A DNA stretch of 55,884 nucleotides from Eubacteriales bacterium (lineage in GTDB: Bacteria > Bacillota > Clostridia > Oscillospirales > CAG-272): positions 1-55,884 of the forward strand of contig JAZSPS010000011.1 in assembly GCA_045537595.1 (NCBI GenBank), written 5' to 3'. The notes under the pieces are model-generated. The model had not been told where the DNA came from. It made no database searches and saw only the letters and a list, made by a program, of their open reading frames with translations. Position 1 is the stretch's first letter. Each line of letters starts with the position of its first letter. The translations under genes were made by a program, and so were the position numbers. Shown here one piece after another: positions 19,306-30,496 of this stretch.

Positions 19306-20127
19306 ATGAAAAGTATTGCTTTTGGGCAATTTTATCCGGCTGATTCGGTGTTGCACCGCTTAGACCCGAGAGTCAAGGTCATTTTAACTGTTTTGTATAT
19401 CGTTTGCTCTTTTTTGTGCAAAAATATACTAAGCTTTGCGCTTTTGGTTTTATCAGCGATCTTACTGGTATTGGCAGGAAAAATTCCGCTTAAAATGGTT
19501 CTTCGCGGATTGCGCCCTGTATTGATCATTCTGGCTTTTACGGCAATTTTGAATATTTTTTGGACAAAAGGAGAAATTTTGCTGTTAAGCTGGAGGTTTA
19601 TTAACATATACGCCGAAGGACTTTATTCCGCACTGTTTATCATGGTCAGAATCGCCACGCTGATTATCGGTACGGGGATGTTTTTAACCTACACGACAAC
19701 ACCGATCGCTTTGACGGATGCGCTGGAGGATCTTCTTTCTCCGCTGAAAAAGCTTCATGTGCCCGTCCATGAATTTGCTATGATGATGACGATCGCGTTG
19801 CGCTTTATTCCAACCTTAGTTGAGGAAACCGATAAAATTATGACAGCGCAAAAAGCCCGCGGAGCGGACTTTTCCACAGGAAGTATTATCGATAGGGTAA
19901 AGGCGTTGATTCCCGTGCTGATCCCCTTATTTGTGTCGGCATTTAATCGGGCGGGAGATTTGGCAATCGCTATGGAATGTCGCTGTTACCACGGCGGTGA
20001 CGGACGGACAAGGATGCATGTTCGTCATGTGCGCTTTGCGGATTTTGTGCCTCTTGTTCTGGTTGTTCTGTTAGGGGCAGCGTTGATTGCTTTAAATATT
20101 GTTGGTATTGGCTATACTATGCGATGA
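19306..20127 (+). CDS. ecfT: ECF transporter transmembrane component T
   Basis: HRLDPR, ALRFIPTL, AQKARG, AMECRCY. Confidence 0.93.
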   Translation: MKSIAFGQFYPADSVLHRLDPRVKVILTVLYIVCSFLCKNILSFALLVLSAILLVLAGKIPLKMVLRGLRPVLIILAFTAILNIFWTKGEILLLSWRFINIYAEGLYSALFIMVRIATLIIGTGMFLTYTTTPIALTDALEDLLSPLKKLHVPVHEFAMMMTIALRFIPTLVEETDKIMTAQKARGADFSTGSIIDRVKALIPVLIPLFVSAFNRAGDLAIAMECRCYHGGDGRTRMHVRHVRFADFVPLVLVVLLGAALIALNIVGIGYTMR

Positions 20128-20154
20128 GAAACAGCGAAGAGGATAAAAGAAATC

Positions 20155-20913
20155 ATGAAGGTTTTGTTGCATCTTTCTTTTCTTGGAACACATTATTGCG
20201 GTTATCAAATTCAACCGAATGGAGTTACCGTTCAGCAAAAATTAAATGAAGCCACCAAGGCATTATTTGGATATGATTGTGATATCGTGGGCTGTAGCCG
20301 TACCGATAGCGGTGTTCATGCCAACCATTTTTGCGCCGCGGTTTCTAAAAAAGGCGGTGTCGGCTTGGAAACTACAATCCCTCCCGAGCGGATCCCCTTG
20401 GCGATCGCCCAATTTTTGCCGGAGGATATCTCGGTATTTAAAGCGGAAACCGTATCCGATGAATTTCATCCGAGGTATGACGTAAAATATAAGGAATATG
20501 TGTATCGGATTTGGAACCGACCGGAGCGAAATCCATTTTTATGTGATCGGACTTGGCATTATCCAAAGCCAATCACGAAGGAAAACATAGAGCGAATGAA
20601 TCAAGCGGCAAGACGTTTTAAGGGAACGTGGGATTTTGCCTCGTATATGGCTGCGGATTCCAAGATTCGTGATACCGTGCGAACGATTTATGATTCGGAG
20701 GTTACCGAGCATGAGGGCGTGATAGAATTTCGTGTTTCGGCAAACGGGTTCCTTTATAATATGGTGAGAATATTGACAGGAACATTGATTTCCGTGGCGG
20801 AAGAAAAAATACAGCCGTCGGATATTGAACGAATTACCGCCTCGCGGGATCGGAAGCAAGCGGGAATTACCGTACCGGCACAGGGCTTATTTCTGAATAA
20901 GGTTGTTTACTGA
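20155..20913 (+). CDS. truA: tRNA pseudouridine(38-40) synthase
   Basis: SRTDSGVHA, GFLYNMVR, PAQGLFL. Confidence 0.95.
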   Translation: MKVLLHLSFLGTHYCGYQIQPNGVTVQQKLNEATKALFGYDCDIVGCSRTDSGVHANHFCAAVSKKGGVGLETTIPPERIPLAIAQFLPEDISVFKAETVSDEFHPRYDVKYKEYVYRIWNRPERNPFLCDRTWHYPKPITKENIERMNQAARRFKGTWDFASYMAADSKIRDTVRTIYDSEVTEHEGVIEFRVSANGFLYNMVRILTGTLISVAEEKIQPSDIERITASRDRKQAGITVPAQGLFLNKVVY

Positions 20914-20922
20914 TTTTTGAAT

Positions 20923-20952
20923 TTGACGATGCGTACCATAATGCTGTAAAAT
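20923..20952 (+). promoter_or_regulatory. Possible sigma-A promoter
   Basis: TTGACG-18 bp-TAAAAT ahead of RBS GAGGAGG. Confidence 0.5.
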
Positions 20953-20973
20953 GCCAAAGAGAGGAGGCCATGT

Positions 20974-22299
20974 ATGAAAAATCCCTTTTCAAACTCAAAA
21001 AAAGAAGAAAACCATGCAAATATGGGAAACCGAAAAAACGGAAATGAATATTCTTTTGCGCAAAAGGTAGGCAGATTTTTCAGCGCTGAGCCTCAAAAGG
21101 AAAAGGTATTGCGTCGGGAGGATTTTCATGCCGCGGGAGACCCGTATTACGCTACTGTTTCCGCGGGCTATAAAATCGCGCAGCGGATTCTTTGGGTGTT
21201 TTTTGTGTTTTTTATGGTGATATCGATTATCGCGAATCATCAAGAAATTACATACGATAATTTTTTCTATTTGATCAAAGATTTCACAGGGGCGGTGGAT
21301 ACCGATAGCAATCGGTATGAAACTCTTTCTTATGAGGCGGACGCGAGACAAAATTTCGCGCTTTACCGAGGGGGAGTGGCAACGGTCAGTCCTTCTAAAA
21401 TTTCTGTATTTACCTCAACAGGGCGCCGAACCTTAAATTCAACCTCTTCGTTTTCCTCTCCTTACATGGTCACCTCGGGAAAATATATTTTGATCTACGA
21501 TACCTCGGGAACCGGCTTTTCAATTTATAACTCTTTCGCGAGGGTCTATACGGAAACCTTGGAATATCCTGTAACCGGAGCCTGCTTTGCGGAGGATGGA
21601 TCCTTTGTTATCGTAACACGGTCCGCTGACAGCCGCTCTGTGATTTGTATTTATAATAAAAGCTTTAAGAAAATATCGGAATTGCGAAGTGACGCGTATG
21701 TTTTCGGTGTGTCGGCGGATAAGGAGCGAGATCGAATTGCCGTGCTTTCATATGAGAGCGGAAACGGAATCGGCAGAGCGGTGCTGTCCTTGCGGGAATG
21801 GTCAACCCTGGAAGAGGAAAAACGAATGACCTTTGATGGAGAATTCCCCCTGTCATGCGGATTTTTGGAAAACGGATACTGCGCGCTCCTGAGCGATCAC
21901 TGTATACGAATTTTTGACAGAGAGCTTGAGGAGCATGAAAAGAGCGGAGATTATTCGGGCGGTAATATTACAGGATATAGCCTGACATCGGAAGGTGTTG
22001 CGGTGTGTACCATTGAGGCGTCAAAAAATACAGTATGCGCATTTGATAAATCAGGAAAAATATTATATAATGGCGATGTACGGCATAATGTTGGAGATAT
22101 TTGCGTTTATGAAGACTTTGTTTTTTTGCGGACCGAAAGCGGTGTGGTTCGGTTACATGGTGACGGTAGCAAAAAAAATGACGAACAACAAGAGGAAACG
22201 CTTCCATCCGGACAGGGAAAAATGCTTGTTTACAACGAACGAACCGTCATTGTTTGCGGTGAATCGAAAGCAGAGTATTTGATTTTCTCAAATAAATAA
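20974..22299 (+). CDS. Membrane-anchored beta-propeller-like protein (DUF5711-like)
   Basis: Single TM near residues 72-88 followed by repetitive beta-rich segments. Confidence 0.6.
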   Translation: MKNPFSNSKKEENHANMGNRKNGNEYSFAQKVGRFFSAEPQKEKVLRREDFHAAGDPYYATVSAGYKIAQRILWVFFVFFMVISIIANHQEITYDNFFYLIKDFTGAVDTDSNRYETLSYEADARQNFALYRGGVATVSPSKISVFTSTGRRTLNSTSSFSSPYMVTSGKYILIYDTSGTGFSIYNSFARVYTETLEYPVTGACFAEDGSFVIVTRSADSRSVICIYNKSFKKISELRSDAYVFGVSADKERDRIAVLSYESGNGIGRAVLSLREWSTLEEEKRMTFDGEFPLSCGFLENGYCALLSDHCIRIFDRELEEHEKSGDYSGGNITGYSLTSEGVAVCTIEASKNTVCAFDKSGKILYNGDVRHNVGDICVYEDFVFLRTESGVVRLHGDGSKKNDEQQEETLPSGQGKMLVYNERTVIVCGESKAEYLIFSNK

Positions 22300-22393
22300 A
22301 TTTTAGTAAATTACGAAAAATTATAGAATGATATTTATTAAAGGATGACATTTTACAAAATGAAAATAAAATTCATAGGGGACGGTAAATCAA

Positions 22394-22972
22394 ATGAAAT
22401 TAAAAAATATTCCTAATATGTTGTCAATTGCGAGAATATGCTTGGTATTTGTTTTTATCGCGCTGTTCTTCACAGGAAATATCTATGCCGCATTGTTTGT
22501 ATTCCTTTTGGCAGGAGCTACCGATGTAGTAGATGGATATTTGGCAAGACGCAATAATTGGATCACCAATTTAGGTAAGATATTGGACCCATTTGCGGAT
22601 AAATTAATGCAGTGTACGGTGCTTGTAAGCCTGTGTGTGAAGGGATATATTCCCCTTTGGTTTGTTATTCCGTTCTTTGTAAAGGAAATCCTAACCCTGT
22701 TGCTTGGCGCGATCGTAATCAAACGTCGCAGCGTGGCGGTAGTCAGCCGATGGTACGGAAAACTGACTGTTTGCGTATTCTATCTTACCATCGTTGCGTC
22801 CATTGTATTCCGTGCCTTCTTGGCAGACCATGCGGTGATCCGTATCCTTATCTTCATTCCCGCAATCGCCATGGCAGCCTTTTCCTTGGCGGCGTATGTA
22901 AAGCATTACGCGTGGTTGAGGAATGAGACTCCGAAGCGCGGAAATATATTAAAAACCCGAAAGGAACAGTAA
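22394..22972 (+). CDS. pgsA: CDP-alcohol phosphatidyltransferase (PgsA-like)
   Basis: NIPNMLS, TDVVDGYLARR...GKILDPFADK. Confidence 0.8.
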   Translation: MKLKNIPNMLSIARICLVFVFIALFFTGNIYAALFVFLLAGATDVVDGYLARRNNWITNLGKILDPFADKLMQCTVLVSLCVKGYIPLWFVIPFFVKEILTLLLGAIVIKRRSVAVVSRWYGKLTVCVFYLTIVASIVFRAFLADHAVIRILIFIPAIAMAAFSLAAYVKHYAWLRNETPKRGNILKTRKEQ

Positions 22973-23005
22973 GACGTTTTTTCGTCTTTGTGTAAATAAA
23001 GTACT

Positions 23006-25327
23006 ATGGTTATGTGTTCAAAATGCCATAAAAGAGTGGCAGTTGTATTTGTAAATAAAATTGAAAACGGAAATAATAAAATGGGGGAGGGACTTTGCAT
23101 CAAATGTGCCCGAGAGCTGGGAATACCGGTGGATAATATGCTCGGAAGCATGATGAACCAAATGGGAATTTCCCCTGAGCAATTGGAAAATATGGAGGAA
23201 GAGGTCAATCAATTTATGACAGAGGCGCAAAATCTTCCGATAGGAGAGGATGACCTTGAAGACGGAGGAGCTCCCGCCATAGATTTGCCAAAGCTGTTTA
23301 AGGAAAGCGGGCTTCCCCCTGTTCCTCAAAGGGATGCCGATTCATCCAAGAATGGAAAGCAGACAAATAAAGGCGAGACACCTAAGAAACGATATAAATT
23401 TCTTGACACGTACTGCCGAAATTTAACAAAGCGGGCAGCGGACGGAAAGCTTGACCGTATCGTAGGTCGTGAAAAGGAGTTGGAACGGATCATTCAAATT
23501 CTTTGCCGCCGTCAAAAAAACAATCCCTGCCTGATCGGTGAACCGGGTGTAGGTAAAACTGCCATTGCGGAAGCGTTAGCTCAGCGCATCGCGGATAATG
23601 AAGTGCCATATAAATTAAAGGGAAAACAGATCTACTTGGTAGATCTTACCGCTATCGTGGCAGGAACACAGTTCAGAGGGCAGTTTGAATCCAGAATTTT
23701 GGGACTGTTGAATGAGGTCAAAGAAGCGGGAAATGTTATTTTGGTAATCGATGAGGTTCATAATATCGTGGGAGCTGGTGACGCGGAAGGAAGCATCAAC
23801 GCAGCCAACATTTTAAAGCCCGCGCTTTCACGAGGAGAGGTGCGCATTATCGGAGCCACAACGCTGAATGAATACCGTAAATATATCGAAAAGGACTCGG
23901 CATTGGAAAGAAGATTCCAGCCTGTGTCGGTCAATGAGCCCTCTATCGACGAAACCATTGAGATGCTGGAAGGAATCAAGCATTATTATGAGGAATTCCA
24001 TTCCATAAAAATCCCCGATACGGTAATACGACGTGCCGTTATTCTCTCAGAGCGATATATAACGGACCGATATTTGCCCGATAAAGCCATTGACCTTTTG
24101 GATGAGGCAGCCTCCAAGCTCTCCTTGAGCAGTGCGGCTCTGAATGAATCCCAGCAGATACGTGAGGAGCTCTTGATCCTTCGAGAGAAAAGAGAAGGGC
24201 TGGAAAGTGAAACACCCTCCGATGAAAAACAAGCGCAAAAATGCTACGAGGAAATCGCCGAAATTAAGGCAAAGGAGATTCAACTTTCCGAACGCCTTAA
24301 GGAGCTGGAGCCTTCTTGTGAGCAGGTATATTTGGATGAGGCGGATATTGCTTCAGTCATTGAAATTTGGACAGGAGTACCTGCTACCGATATTACCGAA
24401 AATGAATTTGAGAAAATCGATAAGCTGGAGGAGCGCTTAAAGCAGCGTATTATCGGTCAGAACGAAGCGGTTGAAGCGGTCGCAAAGGCGATCAAGCGAA
24501 ATCGCGCGGGAATTTCCTATAAAAGAAAACCGGTTTCCTTTATTTTTGCCGGCCCCACGGGTGTGGGTAAAACAGAGCTGGTCAAAACACTTGCGGCAGA
24601 TCTGTTCCATTCACCCGAGACCCTGATCCGACTGGATATGTCGGAGTTTATGGAGAAGCATTCGGTATCCCGTATCATCGGAGCGCCTCCCGGATATGTT
24701 GGATACGATGAGGCAGGGCAGCTTACGGAAAAGATTCGGCGCCGTCCGTATTCGGTCGTCCTGTTTGATGAAATTGAAAAGGCACACCCCGATGTTTTGA
24801 ATATCCTTCTTCAGATTCTGGATGACGGAAGAATTACCGATTCTCACGGAAAGACCGTCAATTTTGAAAATACGGTTTTGGTCATGACCACCAATGCGGG
24901 CTCCGATCACTCCGCGGCAACGGTGGGATTTTCCGCCACGGAGAATTCAGCGGCGTCAGATAAGACGATGAAAGCCTTGTCGAATTTCCTTCGCCCTGAA
25001 TTTATCAATCGCGTGGACGAAATTATAACCTTCCATTCGCTTACCGAAGAGGATTTTGGTAAGATCGCCTGCATCATGCTGGATGAATTGAAAACGGCGC
25101 TTGCCGAAAAGAATATTTTGCTGAAATATTCACAATCGGCTGTGGAATATATCGCAAAGAATTCCTATTCCCATAAATTCGGAGCCCGAAATATGCGACG
25201 CTTTATTTGCAGCCATGTGGAGGATCCCATTGCTGAGCGTATTATTTCAGATTACACGCGCAAGATCTCCGCGATTTCTTTAAAATATTCCAAAAAGGAA
25301 AATAAATTGGTTATAGAGTGTATTTAA
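23006..25327 (+). CDS. clpC: Class 1 Clp ATPase (ClpC/ClpE-like) with N-terminal Zn finger
   Basis: CSKC...CIKC N-terminus; [13 protein letters not shown] and [16 protein letters not shown]; [11 protein letters not shown]; VGF loop. Confidence 0.85.
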
Positions 25328-28102
25328 ATGAAGAACGAAAAATGGTTTAACCTCGGAATTCCCGAGGTGGAAAAAATTTTAAAAACCAATGCCGCCTCGG
25401 GATTGACCCGCAAGGCGGCTCGTTCTCGTGTCAATCGAAGCGCAGGAAGCCTTTATCGAATCATATCAAAATCGCCGTTAAAGCTTTTGCTTGAGATCTT
25501 ATCGGATTTTGCGCTGATCCTTCTCTTGCTTGCCGCGGTTATTTCTCTGTTTTTTGAGGAAACACAAAGAGGAATCACGATCCTTACCTTAAGCGGCGCC
25601 CAAATTTTAATTCTTTGGCTTATGTATTACCGTTCACAGCGCACTATGGAATCTCTTTCCTCCTTTTTTTACCCCACCGCTCGGGTAATTCGGGGGGGGA
25701 AGCTTTTCCATGTGGACTTTCGAAGCGTGGTAGTGGGCGATGTTATGCTCATTGAAGAAGGAGATGTAATCTGCGGTGACGCAAGGCTGGTTACCTCGGA
25801 TGGCTTGCGTGTGAAAATGCGCGTGGACCGAGATAACTATAAGGTGCTGGAAAAAATGGCGGAGGGACATGTAAACCCACGGGAATACCGTGCCTCGGAA
25901 ATGGTCAATATGGTCCATGCGGGCTCGGTGGTGGAAAAGGGAAGCGGACGAGCCATTGTTACGGCAGTAGGCATGTATACATACTTGGGCACTATGACAG
26001 GAGGAATAGAAATAACGATTCCGGAGGGCGTGTCCAAAATAATCAAAAAGATACAAAAGCTATGCGGTAAGATCAATTTGATCACACTCTTGGCAGTTCT
26101 TCCGTTTTGTATTATCAGTCTTTTGCTCGGTCATATAAATGGGGGTACGGTGGTGCTTTCCGAGGCTTTTTTGACAGCGGTCTCACTGGCGGTTACCACG
26201 GTTTCTCAAATGACATGTATTCTTCTTAAGCTGTTTTATACAAAGAAGATCCGAGAAATGGTTGCTCCTCCCGATTCGGCGATCATACGGTCTGTGGAGG
26301 CATTTGATAAATTGGCGAGCGCGGACTATTTGTTTATGCTGGACGGATGCGCACTGACAGACGGAATTCTGCATTTTTATGCCGGAGCCTGCGGAGACGG
26401 GGAAATCCGAAATTATGAATCACCCGGTCCAACCACACGGTATTTTTCGGAGCTTGTTGCGCTCTATTATTCCGCGGCAAGCCGTGCGTTGACGACAGGC
26501 ATCAGCGACGCGGGAAACTATTTTGCCGCGATCAAAGAATTTATACGTAAAATCGGCGTAGATGAAGGAGCGCTCAAGATACGTTGTTCCATCTTGTCCT
26601 ATGCATCGGGAAATTTAAGGGATTCGAGTGAGTTAATGTATTTTAGCGATCAAGGCGAGAGAAGACTGTTAAAAATTTCCTGTTCCGCAACGGCAATTTC
26701 AAAGTGTGACAGCATTCTCATTGGCGGAAAACGGCAAAAATTAAGCGCCGAAGGTATGGCGAAGCTGGAAGAAATGAGAACGCGATATGCATCAAAATCC
26801 TGCGCTCCTATGATTTTTTCTCTTTCCTCTGACGTAAATGACACAGATACTTGTTTTATTGGAATGTTGTCCTTTGCGGAGGGCGTAGATCCGCAATGGC
26901 AAAGAAAACTATCCTATATTGAAAAAATGGGATGCCGTGTTATACTGTTTTCGGGAAGGATGTCACAGAGCGCTCCGCATATTCCAAAGGAAATCGCGGC
27001 ACATGGAGGCGCTTCAAAACAGGATTTTATAAAAAACAATCTTCCGCTGACTTACAGCTTTGGAAAGATCAGAATTTATTCTGATTTTTCTCAAGAGGAT
27101 ATTATAACACTTTTGAACTATGCGCATGCCCATGGAAAGAATGTGGTGACAGTCGGATTTGATGAGGAGTCCTTGGCAATCGCTGAGCACTCGGAGGCAT
27201 TCGTTACATGCGCGCCCGTACATACACGGACAGCCGGATATTTGGATGAGGAGATTCAAACGTTGGAGGTCGTAGGACAGCAATACAGTACCTCTTGTAA
27301 GCAAACGGTAAGGGAAAACGCCGATTTTTTGATTCCGCGTCCTTATATGGGAAAAGGCGGCTTAAGCTCTCTTGCGGCAATCTTTTTGCAAATTAAACGG
27401 ATCCATCGAAATATTTCGGATTTTCTACAATATTTGATAGGGACTCAGATGATTCGTCTTCTCGTTACAGCGCTTCCCATGCTGTTCGGATATACGGTTT
27501 TGAACGGGATCCATATTCTCTTCTGTAGCTGCGTTTTGGACATTTTCGCGTTTCTTATCATAACGAGAAATAATGATCCTGTAAAAACATTAAAAACAGA
27601 GGAGACGGGATTAAAGGGCTTAAAGGAAGGGAAAGCTCAAGATAGAGCGATTTTGAAACGGAAGGAATTTTTCTTGGACATTCAGGCTTTGCTTATGGCA
27701 AGCTTGCTCTCGTCATTGGCAACGGTTTTTTTGCCCTTGATTTTAGATTTTTCAGGGATTATGGGACAGTATTTTTATAAAACAGAATTTTGTTTCATGT
27801 CCTTGATTCTGCTTCACGTGTGTGCTTTATTTGTATTGCGTTTTGATTCATTGCAAGCCGCAAGGAAGCTATATCGCAGTCTTTTGTTCGTCTCAGAATT
27901 AATGTTGGTGACGATTTTCTTGTTCCTTTGCTTGACATGGGAATCCTTTGGCGGTCTTTTTTATATGGATAAACATCCTTTGCCCTATTTTATTCTCTCC
28001 TTTGCTCCTGTCGTGATTTTTTTCTGTGTGATTGCGGGATTTAAAAAATTCTCCAAACGAAACAAATCAGATAATCCGAATAAAAAGACAAATAAAAAAT
28101 GA
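25328..28102 (+). CDS. Type II P-type ATPase-like membrane protein lacking catalytic motifs (putative pseudoenzyme)
   Basis: Colinear with Ca2+-ATPase-like pumps (N-terminal WFNLG..GLT, ARVIRGG..VVGD..GD...DARL, NMVHAGS..G.G.AIV..G) but TGES, PEGL, DKTGT, KGAPE, TGD and GDGVND are all replaced; ORF intact. Confidence 0.8.
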   Translation: MKNEKWFNLGIPEVEKILKTNAASGLTRKAARSRVNRSAGSLYRIISKSPLKLLLEILSDFALILLLLAAVISLFFEETQRGITILTLSGAQILILWLMYYRSQRTMESLSSFFYPTARVIRGGKLFHVDFRSVVVGDVMLIEEGDVICGDARLVTSDGLRVKMRVDRDNYKVLEKMAEGHVNPREYRASEMVNMVHAGSVVEKGSGRAIVTAVGMYTYLGTMTGGIEITIPEGVSKIIKKIQKLCGKINLITLLAVLPFCIISLLLGHINGGTVVLSEAFLTAVSLAVTTVSQMTCILLKLFYTKKIREMVAPPDSAIIRSVEAFDKLASADYLFMLDGCALTDGILHFYAGACGDGEIRNYESPGPTTRYFSELVALYYSAASRALTTGISDAGNYFAAIKEFIRKIGVDEGALKIRCSILSYASGNLRDSSELMYFSDQGERRLLKISCSATAISKCDSILIGGKRQKLSAEGMAKLEEMRTRYASKSCAPMIFSLSSDVNDTDTCFIGMLSFAEGVDPQWQRKLSYIEKMGCRVILFSGRMSQSAPHIPKEIAAHGGASKQDFIKNNLPLTYSFGKIRIYSDFSQEDIITLLNYAHAHGKNVVTVGFDEESLAIAEHSEAFVTCAPVHTRTAGYLDEEIQTLEVVGQQYSTSCKQTVRENADFLIPRPYMGKGGLSSLAAIFLQIKRIHRNISDFLQYLIGTQMIRLLVTALPMLFGYTVLNGIHILFCSCVLDIFAFLIITRNNDPVKTLKTEETGLKGLKEGKAQDRAILKRKEFFLDIQALLMASLLSSLATVFLPLILDFSGIMGQYFYKTEFCFMSLILLHVCALFVLRFDSLQAARKLYRSLLFVSELMLVTIFLFLCLTWESFGGLFYMDKHPLPYFILSFAPVVIFFCVIAGFKKFSKRNKSDNPNKKTNKK

Positions 28103-28164
28103 GAGGGATTTATGTTAAGGAAATGAATGGAATTTATTGAAATTATTTGAATGTTTGTGCATAT

Positions 28165-28194
28165 GAATATATAAAAAACTCCTTTGCATAAAAT
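28165..28194 (+). promoter_or_regulatory. Possible sporulation sigma (E/G-type) promoter
   Basis: GAATA-17 bp-CATAAAAT upstream of ylmC/ymxH. Confidence 0.45.
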
Positions 28195-28235
28195 GATAGC
28201 AATGATAGCATTGTTTTATGTAAAGGAGTTTTGTT

Positions 28236-28529
28236 ATGGAACGATTGAGTACCTGTGAGTTGAGGGAAAAGGAAGTGATCAATCTTTGCGATGGGGCAAG
28301 ACTTGGGTGCCCCGGTGATTTTGAATTAAACATCAGCGACGGGAAAATCACCGCGATCATTGTCCCGCGTCCTTGCGGCTTCTTGGGATTAAGTCACGCA
28401 AATGATATTTTTATTCCGTGGAACCGCATTGAATGTATTGGCGAGGACGCGATTTTGGTTCGACTTTCGGTTGCTGAATATTGTATTCCGGATAAGGATA
28501 AAAAGAAAAACAAAAAGGGAATATTGTAA
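28236..28529 (+). CDS. YlmC/YmxH family sporulation PRC-barrel protein
   Basis: ELREKEVINLCDGARLG...G.I.AIIVP...IPWNRIECIGEDAILV. Confidence 0.9.
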   Translation: MERLSTCELREKEVINLCDGARLGCPGDFELNISDGKITAIIVPRPCGFLGLSHANDIFIPWNRIECIGEDAILVRLSVAEYCIPDKDKKKNKKGIL

Positions 28530-28562
28530 TTGTAAATATTTTGTAAATAAGATAAAAGAGTA

Positions 28563-28591
28563 TTGCTTAATATAAAAAAATATGATATAAT
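28563..28591 (+). promoter_or_regulatory. Sigma-A promoter of rpsB-tsf
   Basis: TTGCTT-17 bp-TATAAT with extended TG. Confidence 0.75.
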
Positions 28592-28635
28592 TTTTTCAAT
28601 TGCGTGGATTAATGAGAATCAACGCAAAAATAAAA

Positions 28636-28712
28636 TACACACACATTTGCAGGGAGCGATGCGGTGTTGCCAAAAGGCAATAAAATCGCTGTGCAATGTG
28701 GTGGAAAAACCG
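28636..28712 (+). ncRNA. rpsB (S2) leader RNA, putative autogenous control element
   Basis: Nested stems CACATT.GCA/TGCAATGTG, AGCGAT/ATCGCT, TTGCC/GGCAA in the rpsB 5' UTR. Confidence 0.65.
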
Positions 28713-28727
28713 AAGGAGGACATTGAA

Positions 28728-29498
28728 ATGTCTATTATCTCAATCAAACAGCTTCTCGAAGCAGGTGTACATTTCGGACACCACACCAGAAGATGGAACC
28801 CCAAAATGCAGGAGTACATCTACACCGAAAGAAACGGTATTTACATCATCGACCTTCAGAAGACCGTAAAGAAGTTTGACGAAGCGTATGCTTTTGTTCG
28901 TGACGTAGCGGCTCAGGGCGGAAACATTTTGTTTGTAGGTACCAAAAAGCAGGCAGCGGATGCTATCAAAGAGGAAGCAACTCGTTGCGGCATGTACTAT
29001 GTAAACGTTCGTTGGCCCGGCGGAATGATGACAAACTTTAAGACCATCAAGCGCTCTATCGGCCGTTTGAACAGTCTTGAAAAGATGCAGGAGGATGGAA
29101 CCTTCGATTTGCTTCCTAAGAAGGAAGTTGCCGCAAAGCAGAAGGAAATCTTTGACCTTGAGAAGAACTATGGCGGTATTAAGACCATGGAAGATCTTCC
29201 CGCCGCAATCTTTATTGTTGACCCCAAGAAGGAAAGAAACGCTGTGCTGGAAGCAAAGAAGCTGGGTATTCCGGTTGTCGCAATCGTTGATACCAACTGT
29301 GACCCCGATGACGCTGATTACATTATCCCCGGTAACGATGACGCGATCCGCGCAATCAAATTGATCTCCTCCGCGCTGGCAGACGCAGTGATCGAGGGCA
29401 AGCAGGGCGAACAGCTTGAGGCAGAGGGCGAAGAGGTCGCTGCGGAAGATGCTGTTGTAGCCGAGGATGAGACTGCTGAAGCAGCAGATGCTGAATAA
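28728..29498 (+). CDS. rpsB: 30S ribosomal protein S2
   Basis: [32 protein letters not shown]; ATG 28728 after AAGGAGG. Confidence 0.98.
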
Positions 29499-29566
29499 TC
29501 AGATTATATAATAAACCGAAAAATTAAGAAATTTTAAGAAGTATTAATTGAAAGGACGACAATAAC

Positions 29567-30496
29567 ATGGCAAATATAACCGCAAAAGATGTTGCCGCAC
29601 TTCGCGCAAAAACCGGTATCGGTATGATGGAGTGTAAGAAGGCTCTTGTTGAGGCAAACGGCGACGTAGAAGAAGCAATTAAGATCCTTCGTAAGAGAGG
29701 CGAATTGAAGGCAGAAGCAAAGGCAGCTACCAGAATCGCCGCTGACGGTATTGTTGATATCATGAAGGAAGGCGATATTACCGCAATGATCGAGGTTAAC
29801 TCCGAGACAGACTTCGTGGCTAAGAACGCATCCTTCCAGGAATTTGTAAAGAATCTGCTGAAAACGATCATCGCGAATAAGCCTGCGGATATCGATGCAT
29901 TGATGGCATCCACATACGTGGACGGTTCCGCGACGGTTGAGGCAAAGCTGAAGGAAATGATCTTCGTGATCGGTGAGAAGCTTAGCATTCGCCGTTTCGT
30001 AATCGCAGAGGGCTTGACCAGCACTTATATTCACGGAACAGGTACAATCGGCGTTATCGTTACCTTTGACGCGGATGAGGCTGTTGCCGCTAAGGATGAG
30101 TTCGCTGAATTCGCAAAGAATATCGCTTTGCAGGTTGGCGCATATCCCACTCCTTATCTGAATCGTGAGTCGGTTCCCGCATCTGTTTTGGAAGAGGAAA
30201 AATCTATTTTGATGGCTCAGATCGCTAACGATCCCGCAAACGCAAAGAAGCCTCCTCAGATCATTGAGAAAATGGTTACCGGTAGAATCAGCAAGTTCTA
30301 CGATAATAACTGTCTCTTGGATATGGGTTACGTTAAGGACGATGACATGAAGGTTGGTCAGTATGTAGACGCAACAGCCAAAGCACTGGGCGGAAATATT
30401 ACTGTAACAGGCTTCTACCGCTTTGAAAAGGGCGAAGGAATCCAGAAGAGAGAAGAGAACTTCGCGGAAGAGATCGCAAAGCTCACAGGAAATTAA
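29567..30496 (+). CDS. tsf: Elongation factor Ts
   Basis: LRAKTGIGMMECKKAL, EVNSETDFVAKN, RFEKGEG. Confidence 0.98.
   Translation: MANITAKDVAALRAKTGIGMMECKKALVEANGDVEEAIKILRKRGELKAEAKAATRIAADGIVDIMKEGDITAMIEVNSETDFVAKNASFQEFVKNLLKTIIANKPADIDALMASTYVDGSATVEAKLKEMIFVIGEKLSIRRFVIAEGLTSTYIHGTGTIGVIVTFDADEAVAAKDEFAEFAKNIALQVGAYPTPYLNRESVPASVLEEEKSILMAQIANDPANAKKPPQIIEKMVTGRISKFYDNNCLLDMGYVKDDDMKVGQYVDATAKALGGNITVTGFYRFEKGEGIQKREENFAEEIAKLTGN

Follow-up and report, generated by a model that had tools for sequence, protein, structure and literature searches.

The window analysed here, a stretch of 55,884 nucleotides, comprises positions 1 to 55,884 of contig JAZSPS010000011.1 (assembly GCA_045537595.1) from a Eubacteriales bacterium of the Clostridia (Oscillospirales, CAG-272). 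At 25328..28102 on the forward strand, to which all coordinates within the window refer, it encodes a protein of 924 amino acids (P0001) that is a homologue of P-type ATPases in which nearly all the residues required for ATP-driven transport are replaced, and which we denote the pseudo-pump. The open reading frame (ORF) is intact, with an ATG start and no internal stop codon, and the TAA stop codon (25325-25327) of the preceding gene, which codes for a Clp ATPase, abuts this ATG with a gap of 0 nucleotides (25325..25330). The first-pass annotation of this stretch, made from the sequence alone, had described exactly such an uninterrupted frame of 924 codons directly behind a Clp gene and had proposed that it encodes a full-length, catalytically dead pump that is maintained by selection in a non-pump role rather than decaying.

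A P-type ATPase homologue with replaced motifs

The only Pfam family that matches the pseudo-pump above threshold is PF00122 (E1-E2_ATPase; E 5.6e-18, 65.5 bits against a cut-off of 28.1), which covers residues 116-295 (25673..26212), that is, the actuator-domain (A-domain) region together with the membrane segments M3-M4. The match to Cation_ATPase_N is below threshold, and Hydrolase, Cation_ATPase and Cation_ATPase_C give no Pfam match at E values up to 0.1. Among the NCBIfam models, the top-scoring one, TIGR01522 (the PMR1-type Ca2+-ATPase equivalog), reaches 82 bits and falls short of its cut-off of 798.3, and TIGR01116, with 49.8 bits, likewise does not attain its cut-off of 703.4. The best relative of solved structure is the Listeria Ca2+-ATPase LMCA1 (9euq_A), recovered with an E value of 1.5e-25 in a single-sequence search and of 1.1e-47 with a profile of 53 family members, in which case the match extends over positions 41-626 and, weakly, 678-867. 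Ten hydrophobic segments occupy the places expected of M1-M10 in the family-averaged hydropathy profile, and the ESM Atlas model of a homologue, P0021, which is 47% identical to the window protein (predicted template-modelling score, pTM, 0.68), superimposes on Ca2+-ATPase clusters with template-modelling scores of 0.78-0.81 over 849-864 residues. The profile match, the ten segments and the superposition of the homologue model jointly imply, therefore, that the pseudo-pump is a full-length homologue of type II P-type ATPases, in agreement with the end-to-end alignment that had been made by eye and with the fold that the annotation had asked to be confirmed, the latter to the extent that a model of the homologue represents the window protein. 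By descent, it is a member of the P-type ATPase superfamily, and its nearest kin are the P2A Ca2+ pumps, such as LMCA1 (PDB 9euq and 6zhf) and the TIGR01522 proteins, which were the best matches in every library searched. The homology spans the whole length, with the same order of domains: an N-terminal segment, M1-M2, the A-domain, M3-M4, the headpiece consisting of the P- and N-domains, and M5-M10.

The catalytic chemistry of these pumps provides the frame in which the sequence is to be read. The aspartate of DKTGT is the phosphoryl acceptor; motifs II-IV of the HAD superfamily, with the threonine of TGD, a lysine of the P-domain and the aspartates of GDGxND, hold the phosphate and Mg2+; TGES catalyses dephosphorylation; and the glutamate of PEGL, along with residues of M5, M6 and M8, binds the ion. 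We examined the respective columns in an alignment of P0122 (908 amino acids), an active paralogue of type II that the genome also encodes, with 120 family proteins, namely, the window protein and 119 homologues that are the best of 436 matches recovered at E<=0.001 in a word-indexed search (the best 120 show 37-52% identity at lengths of about 900 amino acids). The paralogue, encoded on another contig (C64, L006:902-3628), retains PEGL, DKTGT, KGAPE, TGD, the P-domain lysine, GDGIND and the M6 aspartate in canonical form, and carries TGEN in its A-domain loop where TGES is usual.

Against this reference, the losses in the pseudo-pump extend along the whole chain. The former TGES loop reads KMRVDRDNY (residues 163-171, 25814..25840), with RDNY in the TGES columns, which are variable across the family. 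In the segment that formerly comprised DKTGT, now LFMLDGCALT (residues 335-344, 26330..26359), the column of the phosphorylated aspartate is occupied by L338, and an aspartate, D339, stands one column later. Across the family, this column holds leucine in 93 proteins, valine in 12, threonine in 8 and methionine in 7, and aspartate in 0 of the 120. Here, a new family-specific motif has taken shape: L-D-G-C-A-L-T-D-G (residues 338-346, 26339..26365) in the place of D-K-T-G-T-L-T-E-G, with the family consensus L-D-G-[SCA]-A-[LV]-T-D-G, in which the aspartate and the glycine that occupy the two columns following that of the phosphorylated aspartate are each present in 120 of 120 proteins. In the N-domain, KISCS (residues 449-453, 26672..26686) stands for KGAPE, in which the column of the nucleotide-site lysine is variable, and FSGR (residues 541-544, 26948..26959) covers the former TGD, again in variable columns. 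The P-domain lysine is replaced by I592 in the window protein and by isoleucine (100) or valine (19) in 119 of the 120 family members, whereas GDGxND has become VGFDEES (residues 609-615, 27152..27172), the first aspartate being phenylalanine in 102/120 proteins and the second one alanine in 83/120.

The ion-binding site is altered as well. M4 carries TTVSQMT (residues 290-296, 26195..26215) in place of the PEGL segment, with glutamine in the column of the glutamate; this glutamine is found in 97 of the 120 proteins, and glutamate is retained in most distant syntenic relatives. The M5 ion-site column also contains glutamine, compared to the asparagine or glutamate of P2A pumps. In M6, FCSCVLD (residues 732-738) stands for WINLxxD, and its aspartate D738 (27539..27541), conserved in 112/120 family proteins, is the only ion-site residue retained. 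Thus, the replacements read off by eye in the first-pass annotation, namely, DESALTGES by KMRVDRDNY, AAIPEGL by TTVSQMT, ICSDKTGTLT by LFMLDGCALT with the aspartate out of register, KGAPE by KISCS, ITGD by FSGR and TGDGVND by VGFDEES, all reappear in the alignment with P0122. The last one, WINLVTD by FCSCVLD, holds as a substitution; nonetheless, the M6 aspartate is preserved, so that this motif has not been replaced in full. Because every required residue other than the M6 aspartate is gone, the pseudo-pump appears to be unable to run the ATP-driven E1-E2 transport cycle.

What the family conserves lies elsewhere. The most strongly conserved part is the N-terminal segment MKNEKWF...KTNAASGL..KA (residues 1-30, 25328..25417), with a conservation index of 0.84, the highest among all 30-residue windows, and with invariant columns. 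The P-domain stretch at residues 626-690 (27203..27397) includes, in both of our alignments (A1 and A2), a family-specific insertion of about 28 residues and bears the conserved pattern SC.QTVK..AD.LI.RP....GGL. Overall, the parts under the tightest conservation are cytoplasmic, namely, the N-terminal segment, the A-domain and the LDGxALTDG segment, and not the membrane ion site. We also observed that several cytoplasmic cysteines, at residues 420, 460, 509, 628 and 657, are conserved across the family. All 53 sequences of alignment A2 share C460, and C657, within SC.QTVK, reaches a conservation of at least 90%; the pattern might reflect a metal or redox site.

Age of the catalytic loss and selection on the family

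The first-pass annotation had left room for a lone decayed copy with close relatives that keep DKTGT and TGES. The searches reveal a family trait instead. With the headpiece (residues 320-700) as the query against 1.84 billion representative proteins, 102 clusters were recovered at E<=0.001, 30 of these at E<=1e-30, and among the 82 full-length clusters (at least 780 amino acids) neither DKTG[TS] nor GDGxND was found in any. It follows from this search that no active pump resembles the region and that the detectable relatives are all inactive. Of the 82 full-length representatives, 4 contain a TGE[SNPA] string, as do a few deep-branch relatives. The precomputed Pfam domains of the best 120 homologues include PF00122 and never the Hydrolase domain.

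The family is confined, among the 61 loci identified in species genomes, to uncultured Clostridia, mostly from ruminant guts. Within the genus of the window, 23 of the 24 sampled genomes carry the pseudo-pump, at 34-47% identity, and the exception is a genome that is 87% complete. When 150 further genomes, representing 97 genera of the family, were sampled, 27 genera gave matches at E<=1e-35, with 23-38% identity, and DKTGT is absent from all 20 distant loci of this sample that were inspected. Equally degenerate copies are present in two more families of the same order (f8 and f17); one of these, from the f8 genome G031, has an in-register D-K and no other motif. A deep branch (loci L091-L097) preserves what look like remnants: TGES or TGEA, P-K-D-G-T-F-T for D-K-T-G-T-L-T, RGE for KGAPE, the P-domain lysine, an L-D-D/E vestige of GDGxND, and the M4 glutamate. 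These remnants look like the traces of a stepwise decay from an active ancestor. Some of the distant members have no aspartate at either position, neither in the ancestral column nor in the following one (LLGTCALNDG in L081 and L063, P-K-x-G in L091-L097). Judged from these sequences, the catalytic loss is shown to be common to every detectable relative, to be old, and to span at least three families of one clostridial order.

We placed 33 pseudo-pumps in a quick maximum-likelihood tree (47 rows) together with 11 active pumps of type II and 3 of type P1B; all 33 fall on one side of a branch with a Shimodaira-Hasegawa-like approximate likelihood ratio test (SH-aLRT) support of 100. A single origin of the pseudo-pumps is additionally supported by their shared gene order; long-branch attraction among such degenerate sequences may have contributed to the grouping. 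Two interrupted genes were encountered among the distant relatives, a pseudo-pump copy with an in-frame TAA (G090:C286:9777-12509) and a Clp orthologue that is open for only 327 codons (L091:1734-2714); either these are broken genes or they reflect assembly errors in the respective metagenome-assembled genomes (MAGs).

To assess selection, we used 62 complete orthologous ORFs of 878-928 codons from 71 sources, with the window itself (L069) left out; after four identical pump coding sequences (L060, L070, L075 and L078) were dropped, 58 distinct sequences and 1653 pairs remained. The locus counts given throughout include duplicates (L057 and L060 come from the same MAG, L063 and L081 from the same contig, and L070, L075 and L078 repeat L059, L016 and L029). 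In the case of L057 and L060, the Clp and pseudo-pump genes on the two contigs, which belong to a single MAG, are identical, and rpsB differs by a synonymous rate (dS) of 0.006; probably, this is a duplicated assembly and not a real duplication. The Nei-Gojobori ratio of nonsynonymous to synonymous rates (dN/dS) in the 15 of the 1653 pairs with 0.05<dS<1.5 ranges from 0.066 to 0.21, and from 0.066 to 0.12 in the ten closest pairs. For these pairs of genomes, the corresponding values are 0.023-0.11 for Clp, 0.067-0.19 for DUF5711, 0.018-0.13 for PgsA and 0.045-0.12 for TruA, so that the pseudo-pump is comparable to its neighbours DUF5711, PgsA and TruA. When the protein was divided into nine regions, dN/dS was low in all of them (<0.25, the highest single value being 0.22), and the LDGxALTDG segment had the lowest mean dN of the nine, its dN/dS not exceeding 0.05 in any of the five pairs. 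Such low ratios imply that the pseudo-pump is subject to purifying selection.

The anticipated signature of a selected, motif-less clade, that is, dN/dS below 1 combined with new conserved residues, is thus found, in the form of the LDGxALTDG motif and of 124 columns that are at least 90% conserved in the 120 proteins, and the neutral evolution that was set against it is at odds with the ratios in the closest unsaturated pairs. At the same time, the pseudo-pump is the fastest-evolving of the six genes of its block that were compared: over 29 loci, the median identity to the window copy is 37% for the pseudo-pump, 47% for DUF5711, 62% for PgsA, 63% for TruA, 79% for Clp and 87% for Tsf. Taken together, the sequence data make it very probable that this is a conserved pseudoenzyme, a protein that lost its catalytic residues and has been retained under purifying selection.

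Gene order, the Clp unfoldase and possible roles

The most consistent feature of the family beyond its own sequence is the gene that precedes it. Clp lies directly upstream of the pseudo-pump in 59 of the 59 loci with upstream DNA (two further loci start too near the gene), in each of 20 distant loci from the wider family, where the pumps share only 23-30% identity, and in four genomes that belong to families f8 and f17. In several of the distant loci, the genes for the PRC-barrel protein, RpsB and Tsf were not found downstream within the locus, yet the adjacency to Clp is kept. The distance from the Clp stop codon to the pump start codon is between -4 and +5 nucleotides in 63 of 84 loci; the most distant loci have a larger gap, often with a GGAGG-like site just 5' of the start. 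The synteny with the Clp ATPase that the annotation had proposed to examine is, accordingly, extensive, and the translation of the two genes is probably coupled. A promoter and terminator scan produced hits near the expectation from shuffled sequences, with no clear site between the clp and pump genes.

The Clp gene (23006..25327) encodes a ClpC/ClpE-class double AAA+ ATPase of 773 amino acids, with the Pfam domains AAA_2, AAA, AAA_lid_9 and ClpB_D2-small. Its best matches of solved structure are ClpC (6em8, E 6e-199) and, with a slightly poorer score, ClpE (29hb, E 7.6e-188), and it combines a pair of AAA+ modules with a short middle region and a VGF loop, which is presumably the loop that docks ClpP. 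The N-terminal CxxC...CxxC segment (residues 4-34), in which C4, C7, C31 and C34 are invariant in 50 orthologues, is presumably the one that ClpE carries in place of the Clp_N repeat; compared with the PDB, the N-terminal 102 residues gave no significant match (McsA only, E 0.2). The same genome also encodes ClpP and a second, ClpC-like paralogue. Behind the cysteine segment, the acidic linker contains a conserved 12-letter motif (residues ~85-100). This APAxD-type motif is present in 7 of the 7 Clp loci with an adjacent pump gene, and in the genome G218, where the pump is not adjacent; in 20 of the 23 Clp loci without a pump, a TATFPF-type motif (TATFPFLxxLFG) is found at the same place. We considered this correlation as an independent signal of co-evolution and rejected it because the pump-bearing Clps all belong to one clade, so that the association is confounded by descent: in a FastTree phylogeny of Clp, the eight pump-bearing genomes fall within a single 11-row clade (support 99) that also includes three rows without an adjacent pump. 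The difference in the linker may be a trait of this clade. The tree fits a single gain of the pump followed by occasional loss.

The role that we favour for the pseudo-pump, with a probability of roughly 0.45 that we assign from gene order only, is that of a non-catalytic membrane partner of the Clp unfoldase. Under this scenario, the two proteins would be made together, and the dead pump would serve as a membrane-embedded anchor, receptor or regulator that brings Clp, and the ClpP encoded in the genome, to the membrane; alternatively, a membrane or ion signal might be coupled to Clp via the retained M6 aspartate and the glutamine site in M4 and M5. Candidate sites of contact with Clp are the N-terminal segment, which is conserved and cytoplasmic, together with the A-domain and the LDGxALTDG surface. 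The first-pass annotation had offered a menu of roles, and the Clp adaptor is the one that gains support, from gene order alone, whereas the scaffold, the sensor, the passive channel and the regulator of an active pump gain none. Several observations weigh against the Clp partnership. The entire block EcfT-TruA-DUF5711-PgsA-Clp-pump-PRC-RpsB-Tsf is syntenic within the genus, so that the adjacency could be inherited operon order. Clp can do without the pump: an orthologue of it is present in 81 of the 81 sampled genomes of the order, with a pump downstream in only 6 of the 29 best-scoring Clp loci. One genome of the family that is 98% complete (G126) contains only motif-bearing P-type ATPases. 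In G218, the pump gene is located about 80 kb away from Clp. The pump diverges much faster than its presumed partner (median identity of 37% against 79%), and the window copy departs from the consensus at 10 of the 124 highly conserved columns, compared to a median of 4, including those in the LDARH loop between M5 and M6. Finally, no fusion of Clp with the pump was found among longer proteins at E<=1e-10, although this is weak evidence.

The most serious competitor, somewhat doubtful in our assessment, is a non-catalytic membrane protein unconnected with Clp, for instance one that senses cations, forms a passive leak or channel, or scaffolds other membrane proteins, with its position behind clp attributable to inherited operon order and shared expression. 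The M6 aspartate in 112/120 proteins, the glutamine or glutamate at the M4 and M5 ion-site columns and the ten membrane segments maintained under purifying selection are all compatible with such a function, as are the occurrence of Clp orthologues without a pump in most sampled families of the order, the separation of the two genes in G218 and the lack of fusions in our searches. This account has to contend, however, with the persistence of the adjacency while the flanking genes change and the pumps retain only 23-30% identity, with stop and start codons that overlap or abut in 63/84 loci, and with the concentration of the highest conservation in the cytoplasmic N-terminal segment, A-domain and LDGxALTDG segment rather than in the membrane ion site. 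The same gene order would be expected if the pseudo-pump were a dedicated substrate, decoy or inhibitor of Clp, the regulated unfolding or degradation of which carries a signal, and the fast divergence relative to Clp fits a protein with few fixed interfaces. We regard this version as unlikely: nothing specific supports it, and a protein of 924 amino acids with ten membrane segments and a dN/dS of about 0.1 in every domain would be costly as a mere substrate.

Two further explanations concern the pseudoenzyme status itself. Conceivably, the protein is still an enzyme or a pump that employs D339 of LDGCALT or another chemistry, and the invariance of D339 and G340 across the 120 closer homologues, the fact that no other region is as strongly constrained as the LDGxALTDG segment, and the in-register D-K of the distant relative G031 could be construed in this way. 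Such residual activity is highly improbable, given that the threonine and aspartate of TGD, the P-domain lysine, both aspartates of GDGxND, the TGES loop and the KGAPE lysine are gone family-wide, and that the distant syntenic members L081/L063 and L091-L097 lack an aspartate at either position. A decaying or neutrally drifting copy, or an artefact of assembly or annotation, could accommodate the fastest rate among the six block genes compared and the in-frame TAA of the G090 relative. This possibility is refuted for practical purposes by the 62 complete ORFs of 878-928 codons with dN/dS of 0.07-0.2, by the 124 columns conserved at 90% or above in 120 proteins, and by the presence of the gene across families of the order.

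If the pseudo-pump is indeed a membrane partner of Clp, a more elaborate and distinctly speculative extension, which we consider a long shot, is a two-part machine in which the dead P2 pump would be the membrane gate or receptor, the ClpE-like ring would supply the force, and ClpP would carry out degradation, together extracting, unfolding or degrading membrane or secreted proteins. Were this to be the case, the pair would represent a bacterial counterpart of P5A-ATPase dislocases, of retrotranslocation in endoplasmic-reticulum-associated degradation (ERAD) or of FtsH, built from the fossil of a pump.

Known systems and neighbouring features

Few enzymes are as well understood as the P-type ATPases, whose motifs are regarded as universal. 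The P2A Ca2+-ATPases share with the pseudo-pump the domain order and the M6 aspartate, and differ from it in that all the catalytic motifs and most of the ion-site ones are replaced in the pseudo-pump, which in addition possesses the P-domain insertion and conserved motifs of its own. Degenerate P-type modules have been noted before. In Mycobacterium tuberculosis, CtpH and CtpI contain N-terminal regions that are described as degenerate P-type ATPase and uncharacterised, fused to canonical pumps (PMC13460109). By this description, which is the basis of the comparison, they resemble the pseudo-pump as bacterial, presumably non-catalytic modules; unlike these regions, which are attached to a presumably active pump, the pseudo-pump is free-standing, makes up a family by itself and comes together with a Clp gene. 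Alveolate guanylate cyclases, in turn, have an appended P4-ATPase-like domain, and for GC-alpha the ATPase residues are reported to be largely conserved, which the authors found consistent with a functional ATPase domain (10.1101/2020.09.07.285734). The likeness is in the use of a P-type module beyond simple pumping and together with another machine; the differences are that the cyclases are eukaryotic, of the P4 type and covalently fused.

On the side of the unfoldase, the closest analogy is with FtsH, a membrane-anchored AAA+ protease that has its own membrane anchor. The proposed pair would be similar in being a membrane-tethered unfoldase and would differ in that the anchor, built into FtsH, is a separate protein. 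We know of no Clp adaptor that is a homologue of P-type ATPases. A literature search, with most subscription journals outside its range, turned up neither a description of a free-standing bacterial family of dead P-type ATPases nor a paper that links a P-type ATPase to ClpE or Clp, and terms for such proteins were not found in the accessible part of a 2023 review of open questions in the P-type ATPase field (PMC10654040).

The existence of a free-standing bacterial family that combines the full architecture with the loss of the chemistry is a solid finding and an unexpected one for P-type ATPases, and it indicates that the P-type fold is reusable for a non-pump role, although the function that we propose comes from gene order only. 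The tie to Clp offers a testable lead on how Clp machines might be directed to membranes in Clostridia. Because the pseudo-pump lacks every enzymatic feature tested, annotating it as a cation-transporting ATPase would be wrong. The few source names that we saw for family proteins read 'cation-transporting P-type ATPase'; if such naming is general, transporter inventories from rumen and gut metagenomes over-count calcium pumps.

Several minor features complete the picture of the region and its relatives. A hydrophobic protein of 480 amino acids at a different locus (L154, G218:C28:52872-56213) resembles the A-domain over no more than a short piece (PF00122, E 1e-7), in which a GD...PADG-like stretch occurs, and may be another P-type ATPase fragment in a different use. 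In the window, clp is preceded at 20974-22972 by the genes for a DUF5711 protein (441 amino acids) and for a PgsA-like CDP-alcohol phosphatidyltransferase, and the phosphatidyltransferase-clp pair recurs in many families of the order without a pseudo-pump gene downstream. Rfam yielded no match at the gathering score in the interval 20000-30000 of the window, and no sequencing runs, RNA included, were listed for 22394-28529. Downstream of the pseudo-pump, between it and the PRC-barrel gene, there is a long hairpin at 28170..28238, on the same strand, with a minimum free energy of -34.8 kcal/mol for a 146-nucleotide stretch (z -4.85; 0 of 200 shuffled sequences fold as well). It could act as a terminator, even if it is absent from the hits of a simple terminator scan, or as an element of translational control; an A-run is paired with a U-run in this hairpin, which also spans both the AAGGAG of the PRC-barrel gene and its ATG (28236).

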